Below are positions 14,658 through 31,651 of a DNA stretch of 31,651 nucleotides, in pieces; within the stretch, counting starts at the first letter, position 1; each line of letters starts with the position of its first letter. Source of the DNA: a virus (lineage: Duplodnaviria; Caudoviricetes); IMG/VR virus record IMGVR_UViG_3300049436_000058, positions 1-31,651 of that record, one strand, 5' to 3'. The position numbers were made by a program, and so were the translations under genes. A model generated the notes under the pieces. That model did not search any database, was not told the origin of the DNA, and saw only the letters and a list, made by a program, of their open reading frames with translations.

Positions 14658-17600
14658 CCTGCGCCCGCCGCCCATCCGCCTCATTGTCCTTCGTCACCCC
14701 TTCAGCCAGTCGCGCGAGGTGGTCGAGGCCCCCTTCGGCCAGACTTTGGAGGCGCTCGCCGCCGACCAGGACCTGGCCGATGCCCACGCCCTGGCTCTGG
14801 TCGGCGGCGTGGCCGTGCCGCGCGCCGCCTGGAAGTGGCTCAAGCCCAAGCCCGGCGTCGAGGTCATCCTGCGCCGCGTGCCGGAGAAGGGCGGCAAGAG
14901 CGGCCTCGGTGCGCTGCTCTCCATCGCCAGCTTCTTCGTGCCGGCGTTCGGGCCGACGATCTCCATCCTCGGCCAGTCGTTCTCGGTCGGGCAGATGCTC
15001 GTCAAAGGCGCGCTCTTCCTCGCCAGTTCCGCGCTTTCCCGTCCGCAATCGCAGCGCCTCGGCTCCACCGGCGCGCGCGACGCGCCGACCTTCCAGCTCA
15101 CCGGCACCTCGAACAAGGCCGCGCCCTACGGCCCGGTGCCGCGCCTGTACGGCTGCCATCGCATCTACCCGCCGATCGCCGCCGTGCCCTACACCGAGAC
15201 GATCGGCGGCAAGCACTACCTCAACATGCTCTTCGACTTCGGCTACGGGCCGCTGCTGTTCGACGACTTCCGCATCGGCGCGACGCCCCTCGCCAACTTC
15301 ACCGGCGTCGAAATGGAGGTCCGTCCCGGCTACGAAAACGACGCCCCCATCACGCTGTACCGCAACGATGTCAGCGCGCAGGCGCTGGCCATCCTGATCG
15401 AGCAGGCCGACGGCGCCCGCGTCATCGAGACAGGGCTGGGCGCCGACGAAGCCACGCTCAACTTCGTCTTCCAGCAGGGGCTGGTCACCTTCGACCCGGA
15501 GAGCGGCGGCCGGCTTAATCGCACGGTGCGGATCCACGTCGACTACCGTCTTGCCGGCAGCGGCGGGCCGTGGCTCTACGAAGGCGTGCAGGGCACCGTC
15601 GTGCCGACGGCCAGCACCGCCGCCACGCTGATCGCCAGCACCGCCACCAGCAAGACTTACCGCACCGACGAAAAGACCACCGGCGCCGTCCAGCTCAGCG
15701 TCGACATGGTGGAGGGCGACGAGCTGCGCATCAGCACGCGCAGCTACGGCGACACCGTGTGGGTGCAGCAGAGCGTGCAGGTCTGCGCCGGCGGCGCGAT
15801 GGTGGTTACCTACGTGACCAACGGCGAGCAGCTGATCCCCGTGGAAGAGTGGGTCACCGACGAAGGCACGCGCTCCGTCAGCCTGATCGTCGCGCCGTCG
15901 GTGCAGAGCGAGATCCTCATCGAGCAGGTCACGCCGGCCGCCGCGCCCGTGGTCAACGGCTTCTCGTACAGCTACCCGTCGTCGGGCTACTACGACTTCC
16001 GCGCGCGGAAGGTCAGCCCCTACCTGACCTCGGCGCGCATCATCTTCCCGACGCGCGGAAAATACGAAATCCGCGTCCAGCGCATCACCGCCGACACCGA
16101 GTCGAGCAGCGTGCTCGACGACATCACATGGTCCGGCCTGAACAGCGTCACCTACGCCAGCCCGACCAACGTCACCGGCCACGCCCTGATCGCCCTGCGC
16201 ATCGAGGCCACCGAACAGCTCTCCGGCGTGGTGCAGGAGTTCTCCGCCATCTGCACCGCGCTGCTCAAGACCTGGGACGGCGCCGCCTGGACGGACTGGG
16301 TCGAGACGCGCAACCCCGCCTGGGCCTACGCCGACATCCTCAGCGGCACGGCCAATGCCCGCCCGATCGACCGCGCCCGCCTGGATGCCGACGCCCTCAA
16401 GGCCTGGGCCGACGACTGCGCCGCCGGCGGCATCGAGTTCAACGGCGTCTTCGACTTCCGCACCACCGTCTTCGAGGCCGCGCGCGATGTCGCTGCAGTC
16501 GGCCGCGCCAGCTTCCACATGCGCGACGGCCTGTATTCCATCGTCCAGGACAAGGCGCAGACCGTGCCGGTGCAGCACTTCACGCCGCGCAACTCATGGG
16601 GCTACTCGGGCAGCCGCCGCTTCGTCGAGCTGCCGCACGCCCTCAAGTGCCGCTTCCTCAACCGCGACAAGGACTGGCAGCAGGACGAGCGCATGGTCTG
16701 CGACGACGGCTATACCGAAGAGACCGCCACGCGCTTCGAGGTCATCGAGCTCTTCGGCGTCGACAACGCCGACCAGGCATGGAAGGACGGCCGCCGCTAC
16801 ATCGCCAACGCCCGCCTGCGGCCGGAGGAGCACTCCTTCTTCGCCGATGTCGAGCACATCGTCTGCAACCGCGGCGACCTGATCCGCGTCTCGCACGACG
16901 TGCCGCTCTTCGGCCTCGGCTACGGCCGGCTGAAGGCCGTCACCCTCAACGGCACCTCCGAGGCCACCGCCGCCACGCTGGACGCCGCCATCGTCATGGA
17001 GACCGGTCAGGCCTACAGCCTGCGCATCCGCCGCGCTAACGGCGCAAGCGTCGTCGCCGGCATCGACGTCGTCGTCGGCGAGCAGACCGCCGTGACCTTC
17101 ACGACGCCGATCCCCGCCGCAAGCGCGCCGGCCGCCGGCGACCTCTTCATGTTCGGCAAGACCGGCGCCGAGTCCGTCGAGCTGCTGGTCACCGCCATCG
17201 AGCCGCGCGCCGATCTCTCGGCGCAGATCAAGTGCGTCGACGCCGCCCCGGCCGTCTATCAGGCCGACGCCGGGACCATTCCCCCCTGGACCAGCCAGAT
17301 CAGCCTGCCCGCCGTGTGGGAGCGCCGGCCGGCGCGGCCGATCCTCGAAGAGCCCGCCAGCGACGAATCCGTCCTCATCCTCACGCCCGATGGCGGCTAC
17401 CAGGCCGTCATGCAGATCGAGGTCTCCATCCCAGGCGGCAGCGTCGTGCCGGCCGTCTCGCTGGAGATCACCTGGCGCGCCGAGGACGACGACGCCTGGC
17501 AGGTCATGAGCCTGCCGCCGGTGTCGCCGCAGACCGTCACCATCGCCGACGTGCAGGCCGGCATCGCCTACCAGGTGCGCGCCCGCACGCTCGGCGGCGA

Positions 17601-22986: not shown

Positions 22987-23456
22987 CCCCTTCCAGCCTG
23001 CAGGCGCTGCGGCGCCTGCTCTTCTTCTCCGTCGAGGAGGCCGCGCTGCTGGTGGCGGCGTCCGCCGATCGCCCGCAGGGCGTCTCGCCGCGGTCCTGGC
23101 AGTACTGGGAGCGCGGCGAGCGGCCGGTGCCGACCGACGTGGCCGAGACGATCCGCCATCTGTGCGCCTGGCGCGCGCAGGCCATCGCCACGGCCGATGC
23201 CGCCGTGGCCTCAATGCAGGCCCGCCACAGCGCTCCGGCCGATGTCGTGCTGATCTGGTATCAGACGCTCGACGATTGGGCTTCCATGGCCGGACGTGAG
23301 CCGCTGCAATGGCGGCCGCAGTGTTCGGTAGTGGCGGAGCTGGCCGCGCGACACGGCGCGCGCCTGGTGACGTTCGACGGGCCAGGCTATGCCGCCTGGC
23401 TCGGCCGGCGGCAGGATTCGGAGACGATGCGGTCTGAGTGGGCGGCGAGTCTTTAA
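22983..23456 (+). CDS. aca2: Aca2/YdiL (DUF1870) family HTH regulator
   Basis: LQALRRLL..SVEEAA...VSPRSWQYWERGERPVP.DV and Y.TLDDW....WR...SV match my recollection of the Aca2 pattern. Confidence 0.85.
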   Translation: MTPSSLQALRRLLFFSVEEAALLVAASADRPQGVSPRSWQYWERGERPVPTDVAETIRHLCAWRAQAIATADAAVASMQARHSAPADVVLIWYQTLDDWASMAGREPLQWRPQCSVVAELAARHGARLVTFDGPGYAAWLGRRQDSETMRSEWAASL

Positions 23457-24994
23457 GCCGCTTTTTTATTCCTCGGCGCCTGAAACGGCACCGAGCCATG
23501 CAGAATGGGGTTATCACCAGTTCCCCGTGGGGACGCCACCTTAACCCCACTTGCGCCGATCCGGTAGCGGATCGATCCGGCGCGGGTGGCGGGATCCAGC
23601 ACGATCTTCTCGATGAAGCCGCCGAGGAAGTCCTTCAGGGCGGCGCGATCGAGCTCGGCCATGTCTTCGGCCAGGGCGCCGAGCATTCGGCGCACGTCGC
23701 TCTCTTTCACGGCTGCCAGCGTCTTGGCGCGCCGCGTCTCTTCTTCCAGCCTGGCCAGCCGCTGGCTGGTCGTCTCGCGTTCCTTCTCCAGTTCATCCAG
23801 TCGCCGCAGCAGCGGGCCGGGCATTTCAGCGGCTTCGAGGAGTGCAGTCAGCTTGCGGATCCGCGTGTCGGTGTCGCGCAGCTCTGCCTGCAGGGTCTGC
23901 AGCTCGGCGCCGTCGCCCGGCTGTTGCGCCGCTCTGGCGGTTTCGGTCATGGCCTTGACGATGGCGTCGCTGCGGATGTCGATCGCCATCTGCTGCAGGA
24001 CGGCCTCCTCGAGCATGGCCGAACGGATGTTCGCGCTGCCGGCGCGATAGTTGCCGGCATTGCCGTGCCAGGCTCCCCCGTCGGGCGTCAGAACCTTGCC
24101 GGCGAGGAGATAGTCCGATGCGCGGACACGGGTCGCCCGGGCGGCTTTGTTTCCCTCCAGGCGCGCCAGGATGGCCTCGGCGGCCGCGTCGGCGATGAGG
24201 GCGGCGTGTGTATCGCGCTGGATGATCCATTCGGTCCTGGGCCGCCGGCGGCCGCCGGCGCCTCCTTCTTCCTTGCCACGGTGCATGTTCCAGACGGTGT
24301 GTCCGGCGTAGGTGAGGGCGGACCATTCCAGGTGCGCCAGACTGCTGGGGGCGAGATCGATGCCGAGCGTCTGGGCGAGCTGGCGGCCGTTCTTGCCGGC
24401 GGCGCGGCCGTTGAGCCAGGCGGCGATCTTCTCGCCGTTGGCGTCCGGCTCGAGCCGGCTCTTCAGGACCGGCTGGCCGTCGCGCACGACGCCGGTGTCG
24501 ATCGGCACCAGGCGGTAGCCGTAGGGCGCGCGGCCGCCGGCGCGGTAGCCGTTGCGGACGTTCTCGGCCATGCCGGCGAGGCCCTTCTCGCGGCTCATGA
24601 GGCTGTGCACTTCGTCCATCGCCTGCAGCACGCTGTCGAGGATCACCTGGGAGATCGGGTCGACCTCGGGCACCTTGGCGAAGACGATGTCGACGCCGAG
24701 CTTCTTGCATTCGTGGCGGAAGGCCTCGGCGATGTAGCGGCGGCGGCCGATGCGGCTGGTGTCGTAGATGAGGATGGCGGACCAGGCGCGGCCGCGCACC
24801 TTCATGTCGCGCAGCAGCTGCTGGAAGCCGGCCCGGTCGGTGTCCTTGCCGGACTCGACGGCGTCGGTGTACTCAGCGGTGACGATCAGGTCGCGGGCCC
24901 TGGCCAGCGCCAGCAGCTCGTGACGTTGCGCCTGTATCGAGATCGCGCTGCGGTCCTTCGACGACCGACAGTAGAGGGCGGCTTGTCTTGGCAT
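23453..24994 (-). CDS. Large serine recombinase (phage integrase)
   Basis: Catalytic YCRSS, D...SG....R.GFQQLL, DTSRIGR, GGRAPYGY motifs and a C-terminal coiled coil; 513 aa. Confidence 0.95.
   Translation of the reverse strand: MPRQAALYCRSSKDRSAISIQAQRHELLALARARDLIVTAEYTDAVESGKDTDRAGFQQLLRDMKVRGRAWSAILIYDTSRIGRRRYIAEAFRHECKKLGVDIVFAKVPEVDPISQVILDSVLQAMDEVHSLMSREKGLAGMAENVRNGYRAGGRAPYGYRLVPIDTGVVRDGQPVLKSRLEPDANGEKIAAWLNGRAAGKNGRQLAQTLGIDLAPSSLAHLEWSALTYAGHTVWNMHRGKEEGGAGGRRRPRTEWIIQRDTHAALIADAAAEAILARLEGNKAARATRVRASDYLLAGKVLTPDGGAWHGNAGNYRAGSANIRSAMLEEAVLQQMAIDIRSDAIVKAMTETARAAQQPGDGAELQTLQAELRDTDTRIRKLTALLEAAEMPGPLLRRLDELEKERETTSQRLARLEEETRRAKTLAAVKESDVRRMLGALAEDMAELDRAALKDFLGGFIEKIVLDPATRAGSIRYRIGASGVKVASPRGTGDNPILHGSVPFQAPRNKKAA
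23506..23549. other. attP site with a core matching a tRNA-Glu 3' end
   Basis: Dyad centred on GT (23527-28): TCCCC/GGGGA inner arms and TGGGGTTA/TAACCCCA outer arms at symmetric positions. TCCCCGTGGGGACGCCA (23522-38) resembles the 3' end of proteobacterial tRNA-Glu. Confidence 0.8.
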
Positions 24995-25582: not shown

Positions 25583-25989
25583 GACATCGGTCCCATCAGT
25601 AGCTCGGTTTTCCGGTAGCACGTCACGCCGTCCTCGAAATCCTCCTCATCGCAAACCTCCGCGCAGTTGCAGCCATCGCGGCAGGGCTCGTGGCGCGTCT
25701 CCGGACGAAGCAGGCCGTGCTTCTCTGCGGCCTCCTGCAGAGATCCGCCGTCGAGGTCGCCGCAGGGCCACACCCGCATCACGTCCTGGGCGAAGGCACG
25801 CAGGGCATCGCGCATCGCCATTTCCTGCTGGCGGGCCTTGTCGGTGGCGCGGATCGTGTCCCACGCGGCCTTGATGTCGGCGCGCAACCGCGCGATCGCG
25901 TCGGCCGCGTCCAGGCATCGGCATTGCAGCTCGTGACTGCTTTCGTTGGTGCTGCTGTTCCGCAGCCTTTCGAGGATGTCTTCCATCAT
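25579..25989 (-). CDS. Phage hypothetical protein with a Cys-rich C-terminus
   Basis: DILERLR...AADAIARLR phage motif; PC..GCNCAE; ATGA overlaps. Confidence 0.7.
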   Translation of the reverse strand: MMEDILERLRNSSTNESSHELQCRCLDAADAIARLRADIKAAWDTIRATDKARQQEMAMRDALRAFAQDVMRVWPCGDLDGGSLQEAAEKHGLLRPETRHEPCRDGCNCAEVCDEEDFEDGVTCYRKTELLMGPMS

Positions 25990-26246
25990 GATTTCCCCCA
26001 TTGAGCTCTCAACCACGGATGCACCCGCATGGCGCAGACGATGGCCAACGGGCCGCCGGCCAGGTAGGTGGCGATCTCCAGGCCGCCGGCGTCGGGTGCG
26101 AGCTTGTACAGCGCCAGCTGGCTGATGCCGATGAAGAGGCTGGTGAAGAACGCGGCGACGGGATGGCCGTGCTGGACGTTGAGCTGCTGCACGCCGAGCA
26201 GGAAGACCAGGGCGAAGGTGCTGGCGAAGAGGGTGAGGGCGGTCAT
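25986..26246 (-). CDS. Small membrane protein
   Basis: 86 aa, 3 hydrophobic segments, ATGA overlaps. Confidence 0.75.
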   Translation of the reverse strand: MTALTLFASTFALVFLLGVQQLNVQHGHPVAAFFTSLFIGISQLALYKLAPDAGGLEIATYLAGGPLAIVCAMRVHPWLRAQWGKS

Positions 26247-26530
26247 TTCAGCCGGTGCTGCCGCACGGTGTAGCCCTTGCCTTGCTGGACGACGTCGCCG
26301 GGAGGCGCCGGCAAGGCGGGCGCGCCGGCGGCGGAGAGGAAACCGGTGGCGTCCTTGCCGCCGGTGGCGTGGATGAAGTCGACCTCGACCTTGGCGGTGT
26401 TGATGATGGTCTGCGCCACGTCGGTGATGGCCTTGGCGCGTGCGATGAGTTCTGGCTTGGGGTTCGCGCCCTGGAGTTCGTCGAGCGCCTTGAACAGGCT
26501 TTCGCGCAGGTCAGCGATGGTCTTGCTCAT
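26243..26530 (-). CDS. Phage hypothetical protein
   Basis: 95 aa; LRESLF..L..L...RAKAI..VAQTIINTAKVEVDF, a family often next to HNH genes; GGAG RBS. Confidence 0.8.
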   Translation of the reverse strand: MSKTIADLRESLFKALDELQGANPKPELIARAKAITDVAQTIINTAKVEVDFIHATGGKDATGFLSAAGAPALPAPPGDVVQQGKGYTVRQHRLK

Positions 26531-27182
26531 GCTTTTTGCTCCTTTTGTTGATCTTGCGGACGAGTGCGCCGCGCAGTTGAATGACCCGGCACAGCTCGGG
26601 CGGGTAGTTGGTGTGGTAACTGTTGCGCCGCATGTTTTCGGCGTCGGTGATCAGCTCGATGTTCTCGATGCGGATGTCGGTCTTGTCGCCATTCCGGAAG
26701 CGCAGCTTGTGGCCGGCCGGCACGGGGCCGTGGTGTTCCTGCCAGAGGAGGATGTGCACGCCGACCCAGTCGCGCGGCGGGTAGCCGGTGTCGGTCATCT
26801 TGCGCTGCAGGTATCCGTCCATGAGGCGGTGGCTGCCGATCGGCAGCCAGTTCGCCGGCTTCTGGCATTTCTTGAAGCGCGTCTCGGCCGAGCGGCCGCC
26901 GGCGGTCCAGCCCTTCATGCCGGTGTTCCAGGGCACGATGCCGGGCTTGAAGCGGTAGGCGATGCCCGGGCTGTCTTCGCGCCGCAGCCGGCAGGCGTCG
27001 GGCCCGGTGAGGTATTCGGCGCTCTTTTTCAGGCCGAGCTTGCCGGCCATGCCGTAGCACTGAGTCAATCGCCGGCCGAGCGCCTCGGCGACCAGGGCGC
27101 TTTTCACGTCCGGCCAGAGGGCGACGAGCCAGGCGATGTCTTCCTCGCTCCAGAGCTGGCGTGGGCCGCGGCGTCGGGTCAT
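26511..27182 (-). CDS. HNH endonuclease-family protein
   Basis: RFKPG..PWN.G repeats; VHILLWQEHHGPVPAGH...F.NGDKTD..IEN.ELIT..ENMRRN. Confidence 0.85.
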   Translation of the reverse strand: MTRRRGPRQLWSEEDIAWLVALWPDVKSALVAEALGRRLTQCYGMAGKLGLKKSAEYLTGPDACRLRREDSPGIAYRFKPGIVPWNTGMKGWTAGGRSAETRFKKCQKPANWLPIGSHRLMDGYLQRKMTDTGYPPRDWVGVHILLWQEHHGPVPAGHKLRFRNGDKTDIRIENIELITDAENMRRNSYHTNYPPELCRVIQLRGALVRKINKRSKKHEQDHR

Positions 27183-27520
27183 GTGCGCTTCGCCTCCGGC
27201 GCCAGCACCGTGTAGCCCATGGCACGCAGCATGCGCACGGCGCGGTCGACGCCGTTGCCCTTGTAGTCCTCTGAGAGGGACCAGGCCTTGTCGGCGAACT
27301 TGACGCGGCCGGAGTTCCGGTGGTGCTTGAGCATGCCCCAGACCTGATGGCAGTTGAGGCCGGTCTTCTTCATGAGCGAGGCGGTGGTGATCGGGCCCTC
27401 TCGCGTGATGAGGTCGAGCAGCTCGGCGGCGCCGGTGCCAGAGCCGGTGCGCGGCTTGGCCGCGACTGTACCGTGCCGACAGGCGGCGGCCTCGATCTGC
27501 TGGAAGATGCCAGGGATCAT
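27179..27520 (-). CDS. Putative winged-helix DNA-binding protein
   Basis: LLDLITREGPITTASLMKKTGL....VWGML; ATGA overlaps. Confidence 0.6.
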   Translation of the reverse strand: MIPGIFQQIEAAACRHGTVAAKPRTGSGTGAAELLDLITREGPITTASLMKKTGLNCHQVWGMLKHHRNSGRVKFADKAWSLSEDYKGNGVDRAVRMLRAMGYTVLAPEAKRT

Positions 27521-27762
27521 GGGATCAACCTCATCTGCCCGGCGGCTTCGAGTTCGATGGCAGTGGGCGGGATGGGCATGTCCGGATCCCAGCCGCAACA
27601 GTCGAAGGCGGCTTCTTCGCACTCGTGGAAGTCGCGGCACAGCGGGCAGAGGTAGCCTTCGATGATCTCCGGCGCGCAGCATTCGCGGGCGTCGTCTTCG
27701 TTGTCGTGCACATCGCCGCAGCGATCGCACTGCCAGGCTTCGGGCGCGCTCGCCTGGCTCAT
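27517..27762 (-). CDS. Small Cys-rich (zinc-binding) protein
   Basis: Two internal repeats of CxxC...H.....A..CC. Confidence 0.75.
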   Translation of the reverse strand: MSQASAPEAWQCDRCGDVHDNEDDARECCAPEIIEGYLCPLCRDFHECEEAAFDCCGWDPDMPIPPTAIELEAAGQMRLIP

Positions 27763-29639
27763 GGCCGCGCTTCGGTCGGGAAAGGCCAGGTGGTGCTGGC
27801 CAGCGACGATGGCTCAGCGGCGGGCTTGGTCCTGGCCGGCGCAGCCGGCACGTTCCCTTCCGCCGGCGAAGCCGGCGCTGGACTTGCCTTGGCCTTCGGT
27901 TTTTTCGGCGCGGCGGGCTTCTTCTCCGCCGCCGGCGCAGCTTTCGTCGCGCTTTTGTCTTTCGCTTGCGCAGCAGAGGTAGGGGGAGAGGCCTTCTTCG
28001 CGGGTTTTTTGGGTTTCTCCCTGGCGCGGAATTCGGCGGCGACTTCCTTCTTGATGGCTTCGGCGTCGATGTCGTAGGCCTTGGCGGCTTCGAGCAGGCG
28101 CTCGGGCTTTTGGTCGAGCTGCCAGGCGTTGGCGAAGGTGTCGTCGACCAGCGCCATTTCGATCAGCAGGCGGCCGTGGTCGGCGGCCGTCCGGCCGGGC
28201 AGGCCCTCCTTGAAGTCGGCGATCAGCGCGTGGTCGTCCTGCTTCTTGTCGGTGGGGCCGATCCACAGGCGCGCCAGGCGCTTCTGCGCGTCGAAGCTGA
28301 GGTGATCGAAGAAGGATTCCGCGACCCAGCGGAGCTCGATGTCCTTCAGGTGCAACTGGAGTTCTGGCGTGGTTCGCTGGTTCGCATCGAAGTCCTGCGT
28401 CAGGTGGCTGCGGATGGCGTCGAAGAGGCGGCCGCGCCATGCGTTCTCCTGCTTGGCCTTCTGCTCGCGCTTCTTCTGGGCGTCGTCCTTGCGGCCGGGG
28501 CGGGCGTCGAGCTTGATGCCCTTGGCTTCGAGGTGTTCCTGGACGGTGGCCTTGGGCAGGATCTCGATGAGCTTGCCGGGCTCGTGCGGATCTTCCAGCA
28601 GCGTGGGCGGCGGCGCTTTCTTGCCGAGGAGCTCGCGGTAGGTCTTGTATTTCGCGCCGTCGGCGCTGCAGTGCTCGTCGAGCGCGACATAGTCGCCCTT
28701 GAGTTCGTCGTTGTAACGCGAGGGCTTGAGCTTTTCCGCCGCCTTGCCGGTGATGACGTCCTGGCCGCGCGCCTTGGCCTCGGCGATCATGCGCGCGGTA
28801 TGGGCGTCCTTCTTGGCGGCGAAGCAGGCCGGGTCGGTGCAAACGTCGGCACTCTTGACGTCGGCGAAGAGCTCCGGCTGGCTGCCGGTGCGCTTGGGGC
28901 AGTCGGCACACTTGGGCGCGCCGGCGACGAGATCCGCATCGCCGCGCGGGAAGGGCGCCTCGGCCAGGCGCAGCATGTAGTGGTTCTGGATGTGGTCGGC
29001 CGCGCGACGGTAGGACATCGGCTCCTGGTATTTGCCGCCGAGGATGGTGTCGAGCGCCTCTTCCTGCAGCGCCTCGGTGGGGATGCGGGCGATGAGCAGC
29101 GCGCGCGAGGGGTCGAGCTTGCCATCGGCCAACGCCGCGCGCGCCTTCTTGCCGCACTCCAGCAGCTTGAGCTGGGCGTAGACGTGGGAGCGGCTCTTGC
29201 CGATCTGCGCGGCGATGGTGTCGGCGGTGTGGCCGTGATCCTGCATCAGGCGGCGGTAGCCTTCGGCCTCTTCGATGGCGGTGAGGTCCTTGCGCTTGAG
29301 GTTCTCGATGAGCTGCAGCTCGATCGCCGCCTTGTCGTCGATGTCGCGCCAGAAAAACGGGATGTCGGCCAGGCCAGCGATCTCGGCGGCGCGCCAGCGG
29401 CCCTCGCCGCAGACGATCTCATAGAGCACGCCGGCGGGCGCCTTGCCGCGTGCGGCCGGCCAGGGGCGGGCGGTGATGGGCTGGATGACGTCGTGGTCGC
29501 GGATCGAGGCGGCGAGTTCGTCGAGGTAGGCTTTGTCGGTGTGCTTGCGGTTCGTCAGCGAGGCGGCGAAGTGGGCGAGCGGGGCGCGGGCGACCACCAG
29601 GGCGCCGGCGGGCTGGGCGAGGGTTTCGGGTGCGTTCAT
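27759..29639 (-). CDS. parB: ParB/Spo0J-family protein
   Basis: ELAASIR...VIQPI, YEIVCGEGRWRAA, ENLKRKDL..IEEA, HTH (IAAQIGKSRSHV), C..CPKR and CTDP.CF motifs. Confidence 0.9.
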   Translation of the reverse strand: MNAPETLAQPAGALVVARAPLAHFAASLTNRKHTDKAYLDELAASIRDHDVIQPITARPWPAARGKAPAGVLYEIVCGEGRWRAAEIAGLADIPFFWRDIDDKAAIELQLIENLKRKDLTAIEEAEGYRRLMQDHGHTADTIAAQIGKSRSHVYAQLKLLECGKKARAALADGKLDPSRALLIARIPTEALQEEALDTILGGKYQEPMSYRRAADHIQNHYMLRLAEAPFPRGDADLVAGAPKCADCPKRTGSQPELFADVKSADVCTDPACFAAKKDAHTARMIAEAKARGQDVITGKAAEKLKPSRYNDELKGDYVALDEHCSADGAKYKTYRELLGKKAPPPTLLEDPHEPGKLIEILPKATVQEHLEAKGIKLDARPGRKDDAQKKREQKAKQENAWRGRLFDAIRSHLTQDFDANQRTTPELQLHLKDIELRWVAESFFDHLSFDAQKRLARLWIGPTDKKQDDHALIADFKEGLPGRTAADHGRLLIEMALVDDTFANAWQLDQKPERLLEAAKAYDIDAEAIKKEVAAEFRAREKPKKPAKKASPPTSAAQAKDKSATKAAPAAEKKPAAPKKPKAKASPAPASPAEGNVPAAPARTKPAAEPSSLASTTWPFPTEARP

Positions 29640-30229
29640 GCGTGGCTCCAGAGGGTTTTGGTGACGTCGAGGAATTTCGAGAGGCCGACGACCTCGGCCT
29701 GAGTGAGCTTGACCGAGACCTCGCCGACGGCGATGCCCAGCGCGCCGGAGTTCTCGATGGCGAAGCGGGCAGTGCTGTCGTCGATGGGCGTGATGGATTC
29801 ACCGGCCATCGCTTCCTGGGCAATCATCTGGCGACCCAGCGCATGGGCCCCCTGCTGCGATGTGAGTCTCGGTTTCTCGGCCGGCGGCTTCGGCCAGGGC
29901 TTGGGCGCCTTGACCTTGCCACCGGATGGGCCATAAACGAAGCGCACGCCGCGGCCGGAGCCGGGCGGGGCGTCGTGGCGCGCGATCGTGCCGGCGTCGG
30001 TGAGGGCGCGCAGGTGTGGGAAAAGTTCGGCCGCGTCGACGCCGAGCGCCAGGGCGATGACGCCGGGCGGCTGCGGCTCGGCGAGCTTGTTGATGTGTGC
30101 GGCGGCGGTGTCGGCGATGCCGCCGGATTCCTTCCTTTTGGGCATGGTGTCGGGTTCCTCCGGGTGGGTGGGTTCGTTGGGTGCGGTGTGCTCGAGCTGC
30201 GAGACGAGCTGGGCGAAGATGTCGGTCAT
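29636..30229 (-). CDS. Phage hypothetical protein with a possible wHTH
   Basis: 197 aa starting at the ATGA overlap with the intI stop; ends in an ATGA overlap with parB. Confidence 0.7.
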
Positions 30230-31191
30230 GCGGCAAGCCTGTCGAGCGGACTGGCGTGGCCGGCCGCGCCCTTCACAGCCACGTGGGTGTAGATCATGGT
30301 GGTGCTCAGGTCGGCGTGGCCGAGCAGCTGCTGGATGGTACGGATGTCGGTGCCGCTCTCCAATAGATGCGTAGCGAAGCTGTGGCGCAGGGTGTGCGCG
30401 CCGACGGGCTTGACGATCTTGGCCAGGGCGCGCGACGACTTGATGGCCTTCGACACCGCCGAGTCGTGGATGTGGTGGCGGCGGATCTCGCCGGTGCGCG
30501 GATCCGGCCCGGGCTTCGAGGCGGGGAAAACGAACTGCCAGCCGAACTGCTTGGCCGCGCCGGGATATTTGCGGCCGAGCGCGCCGGGCATGTAGGCGTC
30601 GCCCAGGCCGGCAGCGAGATCGCGCACGTGGGTGCGGCGCACCGTCTCTATGTGGTGCTTGAGCGGCTCGGCGACGGCGGCCGGCAGCATGACGGCGCGG
30701 TCCTTGTCGCCCTTGCCCTCGCGCACGGTGATGATGCGCCGCGCGAAGTCGATGTCCTTGATGCGCACCGAGAGGCACTCCTCCAGGCGCAGGCCGGCGC
30801 CGTAGAGCAGCGCGCCGATTAGCCAGTGCATGCCGTGCAGGTGGTCGAGCAAGCGGGCGACCTCGTCTGTGGAGAGCACCACCGGCAGGCGCTTCGGCTG
30901 CCGGGCGGGATGGAAGCCGGAGAAGTCGCCGACGTCCTCGCGCAGGACGTGCTTGTAGAGGAAGACGATGGCGTTGAGCGCCTGGTTCTGCGTCGAGGCC
31001 GACACCTCGCGCTCGCGTGCCAGGTGGGTGAGGAAGGCGCGCACCTTGTCCTCATGACCGCCATCGGCGTGGTCCCGGCACCAGAAGGCGAAGCGCTTGA
31101 TCCAATGCAGGTACGCCTGTTCCGTCCGGTAGCTCATGTGCCGGAAGCGGAGGACGTTGCGCGCGGTTTCGAGTGCCAGGTCGAGCTTCAT
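30226..31191 (-). CDS. intI: Integron integrase
   Basis: [39 protein letters not shown], integron-specific insertion ALGRKYP...WQFVFP...[28 protein letters not shown]. Catalytic R-K-H-R-H-Y residues are all present. Confidence 0.96.
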
Positions 31192-31211
31192 GTCTGCGAT
31201 ATTTGCCGGTG

Positions 31212-31233
31212 GGCTTATGAATCTCTGTTATGC
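31212..31233 (+). other. Putative attI site (core GTTATGC at 31227-31233)
   Basis: GTT core 35 bp from the intI start, divergent from it. GTTATGCCTC is the exact reverse complement of GAGGCATAAC at the far end of the cassette. Confidence 0.7.
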
Positions 31234-31542
31234 CTCACTTGCACGTCCGCACCTTGCCGTCCGGAGAGTACGCCACGGACGCCCCACTGGTGAATTGCAG
31301 GTACATCACGCCATCCACGCAGGTATGCGCAATTCCGGTCACGCTAGCTACGCCACGATCCCACGCGCCGCAGCCAGCAAGGCCAAGCGCAATCACAATT
31401 GCCAGTGTCGTTTTCATGTTTCGTTCCTCTCGTCAAAAGTCGGTTCTAGTGGTACGGCGAGGCATAACCCTACGGTCGACCCCGTTCGCTTCGCTCTCTG
31501 GACGCTGCGCGATAAAGCCGCGCAGCGCCGGTCACCTACTCG
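31228..31542 (+). mobile_element. Integron gene cassette 1 (ORF inverted)
   Basis: Bounded by G|TTATGC and the attC crossover G|TTAGGG; holds one ORF; appears less GC-rich than the phage backbone. Confidence 0.8.
31235..31417 (-). CDS. 60-aa lipoprotein in cassette 1
   Basis: MKTTLAIVIALGLAGC lipobox; GAGAGGA RBS; two further Cys. Confidence 0.85.
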   Translation of the reverse strand: MKTTLAIVIALGLAGCGAWDRGVASVTGIAHTCVDGVMYLQFTSGASVAYSPDGKVRTCK

Positions 31543-31548
31543 TTAGGG
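31462..31548 (+). other. attC site, 87 bp
   Basis: R'' GCATAAC, 5 nt, L'' GGTCGACC (extra C), central hairpin GCTGCGCGATAAAGCCGCGCAGC, L' GGTCACC, 5 nt, R' GTTAGGG. Confidence 0.9.
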
Positions 31549-31651
31549 GCTTGCGGCGCTGGCATCCAGTGTGTCGGATTCACCATCACATAAGGCCATG
31601 ACCACACGCCGTAGTGTGTGTGCCACTCACCTGCCGCAATCTTCCCGCTAG
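31536..31651 (-). CDS. 3' end of a DUF551-like phage protein (cassette 2, truncated by the window)
   Basis: Manual translation ...GEWHTHYGVWSWPYVMVNPTHWMPAPQAPNE*; THWMPxP is the DUF551 signature; the stop lies inside attC. Confidence 0.75.
   Translation of the reverse strand, partial: SGKIAAGEWHTHYGVWSWPYVMVNPTHWMPAPQAPNE

Follow-up and report, generated by a model that had tools for sequence, protein, structure and literature searches.

Inverted cassette genes in a phage-resident integron and their probable reading from a distal early promoter

The selectivity of the integron integrase for the bottom strand of attC is held to orient cassette genes correctly for the promoter Pc (PMC5027507). 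The locus described here combines integron parts with cassette ORFs that lie on the attC bottom strand and face the integrase gene intI, which raises the question of how such cassettes are inserted and how their genes are read. The window, i.e. the whole stretch of DNA that was analysed, is one whole contig of 31,651 bp from a tailed phage. Its + strand carries the terminase, portal, capsid, tail and amidase genes, and its − strand the early genes together with a serine integrase (23453..24994, −; phrog_95, E 2.5e-48), the terminal gene of the early-left region, whose presence indicates a temperate phage.

The integron of the window phage

The integron integrase IntI (30226..31191, −) is intact, with 321 aa and a score of 411 bits against the TIGR02249 cut-off of 265. 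It aligns over its full length with VchIntIA (2A3V, E 5e-77), the insertion region included. At the positions aligned with VchIntIA, the residues R135, K160, H266, R269, H292 and Y301, which we take to be the catalytic residues of IntI, are all intact. The attI site (31203..31233, +) lies 35 bp from the intI start codon, with the core GTTATGC at 31227-31233 and the G|TT crossover at 31227/31228; across the clade of the window IntI the spacing between intI and attI is 31-48 bp. In the three closest viral relatives (L001, L002 and L004) the 25 bp to the left of the crossover are conserved and the right side is variable, and the same pattern is seen in loci fetched by the attI motif (12 viral and 9 metagenome stretches, several of them redundant).

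The attC site of the first cassette, attC1 (31462..31548), has its top strand on +, with R'' GCATAAC at 31462-31468, L'' GGTCGACC at 31474-31481, L' GGTCACC at 31530-31536 and R' GTTAGGG at 31542-31548. L'' without C31477 is the perfect complement of L', leaving an extrahelical G on the bottom strand, and it is this extra C in L'' that assigns the top strand to +. An attC detector ranked attC1 as the best site in the window (score 24.0), none of ten window shuffles exceeding 21; two isolated attC-like stretches, 17034-17157 and 26043-26184 (scores about 22), were not accepted. The intact intI lies on −, 271 bp from attC1, which distinguishes the locus from a CALIN, in which attC sites are clustered and no integrase is present. 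When attC1 was folded within the array without constraints, its z-scores were weak (−0.9 to −1.8), and in the energy model both strands fold about equally. When cassette 1 was modelled as a circle, the best fold of the attC bottom strand was the recombinogenic hairpin, with a pfold of 0.64 compared with 0.005 in the array.

Cassette 1 (31228..31542, +) comprises 315 bp and has the standard attC polarity. Its left end, counted from the attI core, is complementary at 10/10 positions to the 10 nt ending at its own R''; this complementarity and the folding of the circle indicate that the cassette was inserted the normal way round. Cassette 1 is thus well formed and of normal polarity, and its gene alone is reversed. 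That gene (31235..31417, −) encodes a predicted phage lipoprotein of 60 aa (phrog_7772, E 5e-15; the lipobox match is weak) with 27 homologues. Its stop codon TGA was located 1 nt from the attI core, where the first-pass annotation had placed it; the ribosome-binding site GAGGA (31425..31429, −, read from the sequence), which the same annotation had set next to R'', is about 32 nt away from R''. In other viral loci the cassette 1 gene occurs free of flanking attC in 12/12 cases, suggesting that ordinary phage genes become packaged as cassettes.

The contig ends 109 bp inside cassette 2, so that the 5' part of its ORF is cut off and the last 37 codons are present (31536..31649, −). This ORF is weakly DUF551-like, with a Pfam match below the cut-off (E 0.0038) and a neutral codon score; it spans the crossover on an AAC codon and takes its stop codon TAG (31536-31538) from attC1. 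The earlier claim that + is the attC top strand and that the cassette ORFs lie on − is therefore borne out by the attC boxes, the extra C31477, intI on − and 2/2 ORFs on −. Real + strand ORFs would have spoken against it; the two + strand ORFs over the cassette, 31136-31546 and 31230-31601, have no Pfam match and negative codon scores and were rejected. A further + strand ORF (30826-31293) has a positive codon score; nearly all of it lies antisense to intI, of which it was regarded as the shadow.

Inverted cassette ORFs are the rule in related phages

From 212 viral and 588 bacterial loci with a related IntI, the bacterial scan covering 3 of 64 parts, we took the 80 best of each kind and applied one attC detector and one codon model to both sets alike. 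Of these loci, 40 viral and 25 bacterial ones have an array upstream of intI. The viral arrays were inverted in 34 loci, canonical in none and uncalled in 6, compared with 2 inverted, 19 canonical and 4 uncalled among the bacterial arrays; the possibility, raised along with the original claim, that most other cassettes might have the normal orientation did not hold for the related phages. The codon model gave the same picture for single segments, with 96 inverted, 4 canonical and 45 uncalled among 145 viral segments (the loci are related, and L053 is a near-duplicate of L051) and 6 inverted, 32 canonical and 53 uncalled among 91 bacterial ones.

The best ORF per strand was also scanned regardless of the codon-model call, with L053 and the window left out. 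PHROG families matched 44/132 bottom-strand and 0/126 top-strand viral ORFs, the top-strand candidates averaging 63 aa against 115 aa and so being less likely to match a family; two of the family matches, in L018, lie in distal multi-gene segments that are perhaps not true cassettes. The bacterial control was reversed, with Pfam matches for 17/88 top-strand and 5/89 bottom-strand ORFs, the latter five comprising three transposases, one integrase fragment and a DUF5131 gene in L095. A ribosome-binding site precedes 54/132 bottom-strand and 1/126 top-strand viral candidates. The viral cargo includes DNA methyltransferases, Mom-like and PAPS-reductase-like proteins, exonucleases, RNA ligases, a DHH phosphoesterase and many proteins of unknown function. 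Inverted cassette ORFs are thus the rule in related phages. Among the exceptions, the viral contig L038 (10984-11547) has canonical cassettes downstream of a co-directional intI, with ORFs that read into attC, which is another solution for keeping the operon direction; the published TJE1 CALIN is canonical at 3/3 sites.

The inverted ORFs end in a few characteristic ways. Among 62 distinct ORFs, 15 end at a TAA complementary to the G|TTA core, 11 end 7-8 nt inside and 26 span the crossover, all of these (26/26) in the AAC frame. A stop codon at −7 in the AAC frame is present in 34/115 phage attCs and 6/69 bacterial ones (p 0.0008, an optimistic value because the sites are related), and a stop within 100 nt in that frame in 108/115 and 52/69, respectively. 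Crossover-spanning ORFs would pass the junction on the AAC codon and take their stop from the neighbouring attC or attI; the two window cassettes fall into the modal stop classes (+7 and −7).

On the IntI tree the inverted label requires 3-4 changes, compared with 15 when shuffled (quick trees), and a single inverted clade was not rejected (p-AU 0.057; quick trees, 51 rows, L052, L053, L064 and L116 left out); these trees thus neither establish nor reject that the inverted type arose once.

Several further arrangements were seen. One contig, which contains L180, L176 and L004, has two near-identical attI, one on each strand and separated by about 9 kb. The second lacks intI and stands at the head of an inverted array of two cassettes in the operon on the cro side. 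In L175, L177, L178, L183, L184, L188-L191 and L193-L195 the attI motif occurs and a full intI is missing; some of these loci have inverted cassettes, and L189 retains an N-terminal intI remnant of 81 aa. In L037 (11328-12220), L040 (11964-12924) and L161 (Virus Rctr41k, KX853513; 8415-8813), attC lies downstream of intI and the bottom strand again carries the ORFs; in L040 intI is flanked by an array on either side.

Probable reading of the array in the phage early operon

In the window, intI is the head of a run of overlapping, co-directional early genes (25986..30229, −) that encode a 197-aa protein of unknown function, a ParB-like protein of 626 aa, an HNH protein and small ORFs. It overlaps the next phage gene by 4 nt, and from intI downward 6/7 junctions are 4-nt overlaps and one is a 20-nt overlap. 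The ParB-like gene (27759-29639, −) is located two genes below intI; in L051-L053 a 640-aa ParB-like gene directly follows intI, despite an IntI of another clade. A scan of the window, insensitive in GC-rich DNA, found no Pc-like promoter near attI, and no LexA box was found in the window with a motif that may not be that of the host.

The arrays of relatives likewise lie in long co-directional runs of short genes. Ten loci were chosen by eye because they show a clear change of strand. In 7 of them a cI-like gene points towards the array and a cro-like gene away from it, and a cI-like gene lies upstream in 8, at 4.0-9.1 kb from intI; the phage integrases of these loci come after intI. The resulting order of cI/cro, array, intI and phage integrase is that of the early-left region of lambda. 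The lambdoid early-left accessory region, between the repressor and xis-int, contains small overlapping genes, methyltransferases and DUF551-like genes. The arrays resemble it in position and in all of these contents, and differ in that their genes are bounded by attC and served by a dedicated recombinase. L001 and L003 belong to other phage types, in which the same strand carries a primase or Mu-like transposase genes upstream, and their arrays are again co-directional. In one phage the opposite operon contains a second attI whose array is likewise inverted (2/2 cassettes), which ties inversion to operon direction.

Platform promoters were compared between 24 phage and 10 bacterial loci. LexA-like boxes were found in 0/24 and 2/10, respectively, in a weak scan with a motif that may not be the host's, Pint-like sites in 1/24 and 4/10 and Pc-like sites in 5/24 and 4/10, both with a scan that is insensitive in GC-rich DNA and, for Pc, did not separate the classes. 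The arrays of relatives sit in the early-left operon between intI and the cro/cI switch, which is 4-9 kb above them, and a distal phage early promoter is therefore the likely source of array transcripts. As first proposed, such a promoter would read the array through into intI. The parts of this proposal that stand directly are the systematic inversion, the position of intI at the head of a co-directional run and the cro/cI genes upstream in relatives; read-through itself is what we infer from them.

Alternatively, every inverted cassette could be transcribed from a promoter of its own in or beside attC, like toxin-antitoxin cassettes, which would make array position irrelevant. Cassettes with a promoter of their own have been described (PMC4889954), and antisense promoters occur in cassettes that lack an ORF (PMC8876359). 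However, a sigma70-like site on the sense strand was found in 1/90 regions comprising attC and 45 nt; the 62 ORF starts, of which 17 fall inside or at attC and 28 no more than 45 nt away from it, also argue against self-promotion, as does the placement of arrays inside the long co-directional runs, and we regard this explanation as unlikely.

We consider it quite probable, judging from sequence comparisons, that the window carries a phage-resident integron with normal attC polarity and bottom-strand genes, and that transcripts from a distal early promoter under repressor control extend across the cassettes and attI and on through intI. IntI would recombine the attC bottom strand as usual and put cassette circles into attI, so that a new cassette would be the last one in the message, immediately ahead of intI. 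The early promoter would stand in for both Pc and the LexA-controlled Pint, with the integrase made once the phage repressor is lifted. The first-pass annotation had suggested that new cassettes come last and that the usual expression gradient is thereby reversed. Its first part agrees with attI-proximal cassettes that differ between near-identical phages, and its second part, a gradient by distance, had to be restated: according to Carvalho 2024 (PMC11511950), distance from Pc has a negligible effect and expression is set by the translation of upstream cassettes, so the reversal would concern the order of dependence between cassettes. A newcomer would depend on the older cassettes and could not silence them, and it could throttle intI and the genes below.

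Replication may add to this arrangement. In 5/12 loci the replication genes lie on the cro side, beyond the switch, and a fork starting there would run with the ORFs and make the bottom strand the lagging-strand template. Because a lagging-strand template favours attC folding (PMC5371416), genes co-directional with a fork from a lambda-like origin would favour both attC folding and cassette turnover.

Cassette movement and comparison with known integrons

Complementarity of the left core to the R'' of its own cassette was found in 79/95 viral cassettes (shuffled mean 5.5, maximum 14), and complementarity to the R'' of the same hairpin in 7/95. L051 and L052 have backbones that are 99-99.9% identical, identical IntI and six cassettes in common, in the same order; they differ by one versus two cassettes at attI and by three internal cassettes, every break falling exactly at G|TT and lying between dissimilar attCs. 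L061 and L064 diverge from the attI crossover onward and have distal cassettes in common, and L067 contains a 562-bp cassette body twice, 100% identical, at positions 3 and 5. The units are thus real, moving cassettes in the relatives. The breaks at G|TT, together with the left-core complementarity, place the crossover at R' and argue against a mirrored reading of the site. Because cassettes differ at internal positions too, position in the array is not a simple order of age. In L051, cassettes 1 and 4 hold different genes within an identical attC and have their first 12 bases alike, suggesting that new cassettes arise by ORF swap within an existing cassette frame.

These data bear on two other explanations. 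Shuffling might be due mainly to host integrases or to phage homologous recombination between similar attCs, with the phage IntI incidental. The loci with an attI motif and no full intI, one of them with the 81-aa remnant, the identical attC of the two L051 cassettes and the finding that phage attCs are IntI1 substrates (PMC9892861) would fit such a scheme. It is made very unlikely by the intact window IntI and its conserved distance to attI across the clade, and by breakpoints at G|TT between dissimilar attCs, as site-specific recombination predicts. The other explanation holds that the functional strand is called wrongly, IntI recombining the + strand hairpin of ordinary cassettes beside an inverted integrase. 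The near-equal folding of the two strands allows for this, and inverted-integrase integrons exist (PMC4889954), L038 resembling one. The crossover, however, is on the R' side and not at R'', with the breakpoints at the G|TT of R', the left core complements the cassette's own R'' far more often than that of the same hairpin, and the same detector calls bacterial arrays and TJE1 canonical, which leaves this explanation highly improbable compared with bottom-strand recombination of cassettes with reversed genes.

For the window phage itself, contigs of four runs, all bioreactor metagenomes, were compared with the window. Of the sampled words, the RNA runs X8, X11 and X13 contain fractions of 0.56, 0.44 and 0.20, which we do not take as a sign of transcription. 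Contigs of run X1, a possible source of the DNA and thus not independent, match the window without differences at 29900-31502 and 31515-31651. Contig depth drops across attC1 from 26.5 to 11.7 in X1 and from 9.0 to 3.5 in X5, and the match of one X6 contig (depth 2.5) ends exactly at 31227, with 6 letters unaligned. The depth drops and the X6 break faintly hint at array variation in the window phage; the drop at attC1 is a weak sign because contigs break at an attC common to other organisms. Contig joints were rejected as array variants, all those listed having unknown middles or sides of <45 nt, and the cassette 2 pattern had 0 matches in the viral contigs searched, so that no further part of the array was found there. 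The inner hairpin of attC1 (31462-31548) occurs in very abundant sequences of the same bioreactor samples, with a summed contig depth in the thousands compared with 26 for the phage; host-type attC sites therefore resemble attC1.

The locus shares with canonical integrons (class 1 mobile integrons and the chromosomal integrons of Vibrio and betaproteobacteria) a TIGR02249 IntI, an attI with a G|TT crossover upstream of intI, attC with R''/L''/L'/R' boxes, an extrahelical G and complementarity of R' and R'', and an array extending away from intI. Unlike them, it has cassette ORFs on the bottom strand that face intI, just 35 bp between intI and attI, no LexA box in the scan, a platform within a phage early operon, stop codons supplied by the R' core or a neighbouring site instead of R'', and phage-type cargo. 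It works like an integron in recombination and departs from the canonical ORF polarity, and is hence a variant. In inverted-integrase integrons of the Treponema type (PMC4889954), intI and cassette genes are also co-directional, but there intI is flipped relative to attC and ORF polarity is normal, whereas in the window intI, attI and attC are normal and the ORF is flipped within the cassette.

The phage integrons and CALINs described by Qi et al. 2023 (PMC9892861) likewise place integron parts and methyltransferase cargo in phage genomes, and their phage attCs work with IntI1 through the bottom strand. The complete integrons reported there are captured chromosomal or class 1 fragments, unlike that of the window phage; no class with inverted ORFs is set out in the text consulted, and inverted cases may be among the 17 CALINs of the supplements. 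The literature searched, outside of which most subscription papers lie, contained no phage integrons with systematically inverted ORFs. Chance pick-up of a bacterial integron fragment with one or two odd cassettes, as described for Vibrio, Shewanella and P1 phages (PMC9892861), is extremely improbable here, given that the nearest IntIs (70-75%) are all viral, with ≤57% among the bacterial loci returned, that the cargo is of phage type and that intI overlaps the next phage gene.

Apparently, then, the same bottom-strand chemistry serves the opposite gene orientation, with a phage promoter replacing Pc and Pint. This would provide an enzymatic mechanism for the mosaicism of phage early regions and a mirror image of the anti-phage cassettes borne by bacterial integrons. 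Because the cargo also exists as plain phage genes, the system is tractable for the question of how cassettes are made; tools that pair an ORF with a same-strand attC would misassign inverted cassettes. More tentatively, temperate phages may run a cassette economy of their own, with early genes packaged in operon direction, an integrase under repressor control and the recombinogenic strand kept as lagging-strand template; genes for DNA modification and host interaction would then be reshuffled in every lytic cycle. This possible reading draws on the attC-free occurrence of the cassette 1 gene in other viral loci and on a chromosomal Gallionella array with phage-type inverted cassettes ahead of canonical ones; if true, phages would be a site of de novo cassette formation.

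The latter array (L095:5445-9826) belongs to a Gallionella sp. contig with non-phage flanks; its first two cassettes are inverted and of phage type, one with the DUF5131 gene, and its last is a canonical ParE cassette. Its IntI is sister to that of the viral L018 (support 100), and exchange between phage and chromosomal integrons is possible.
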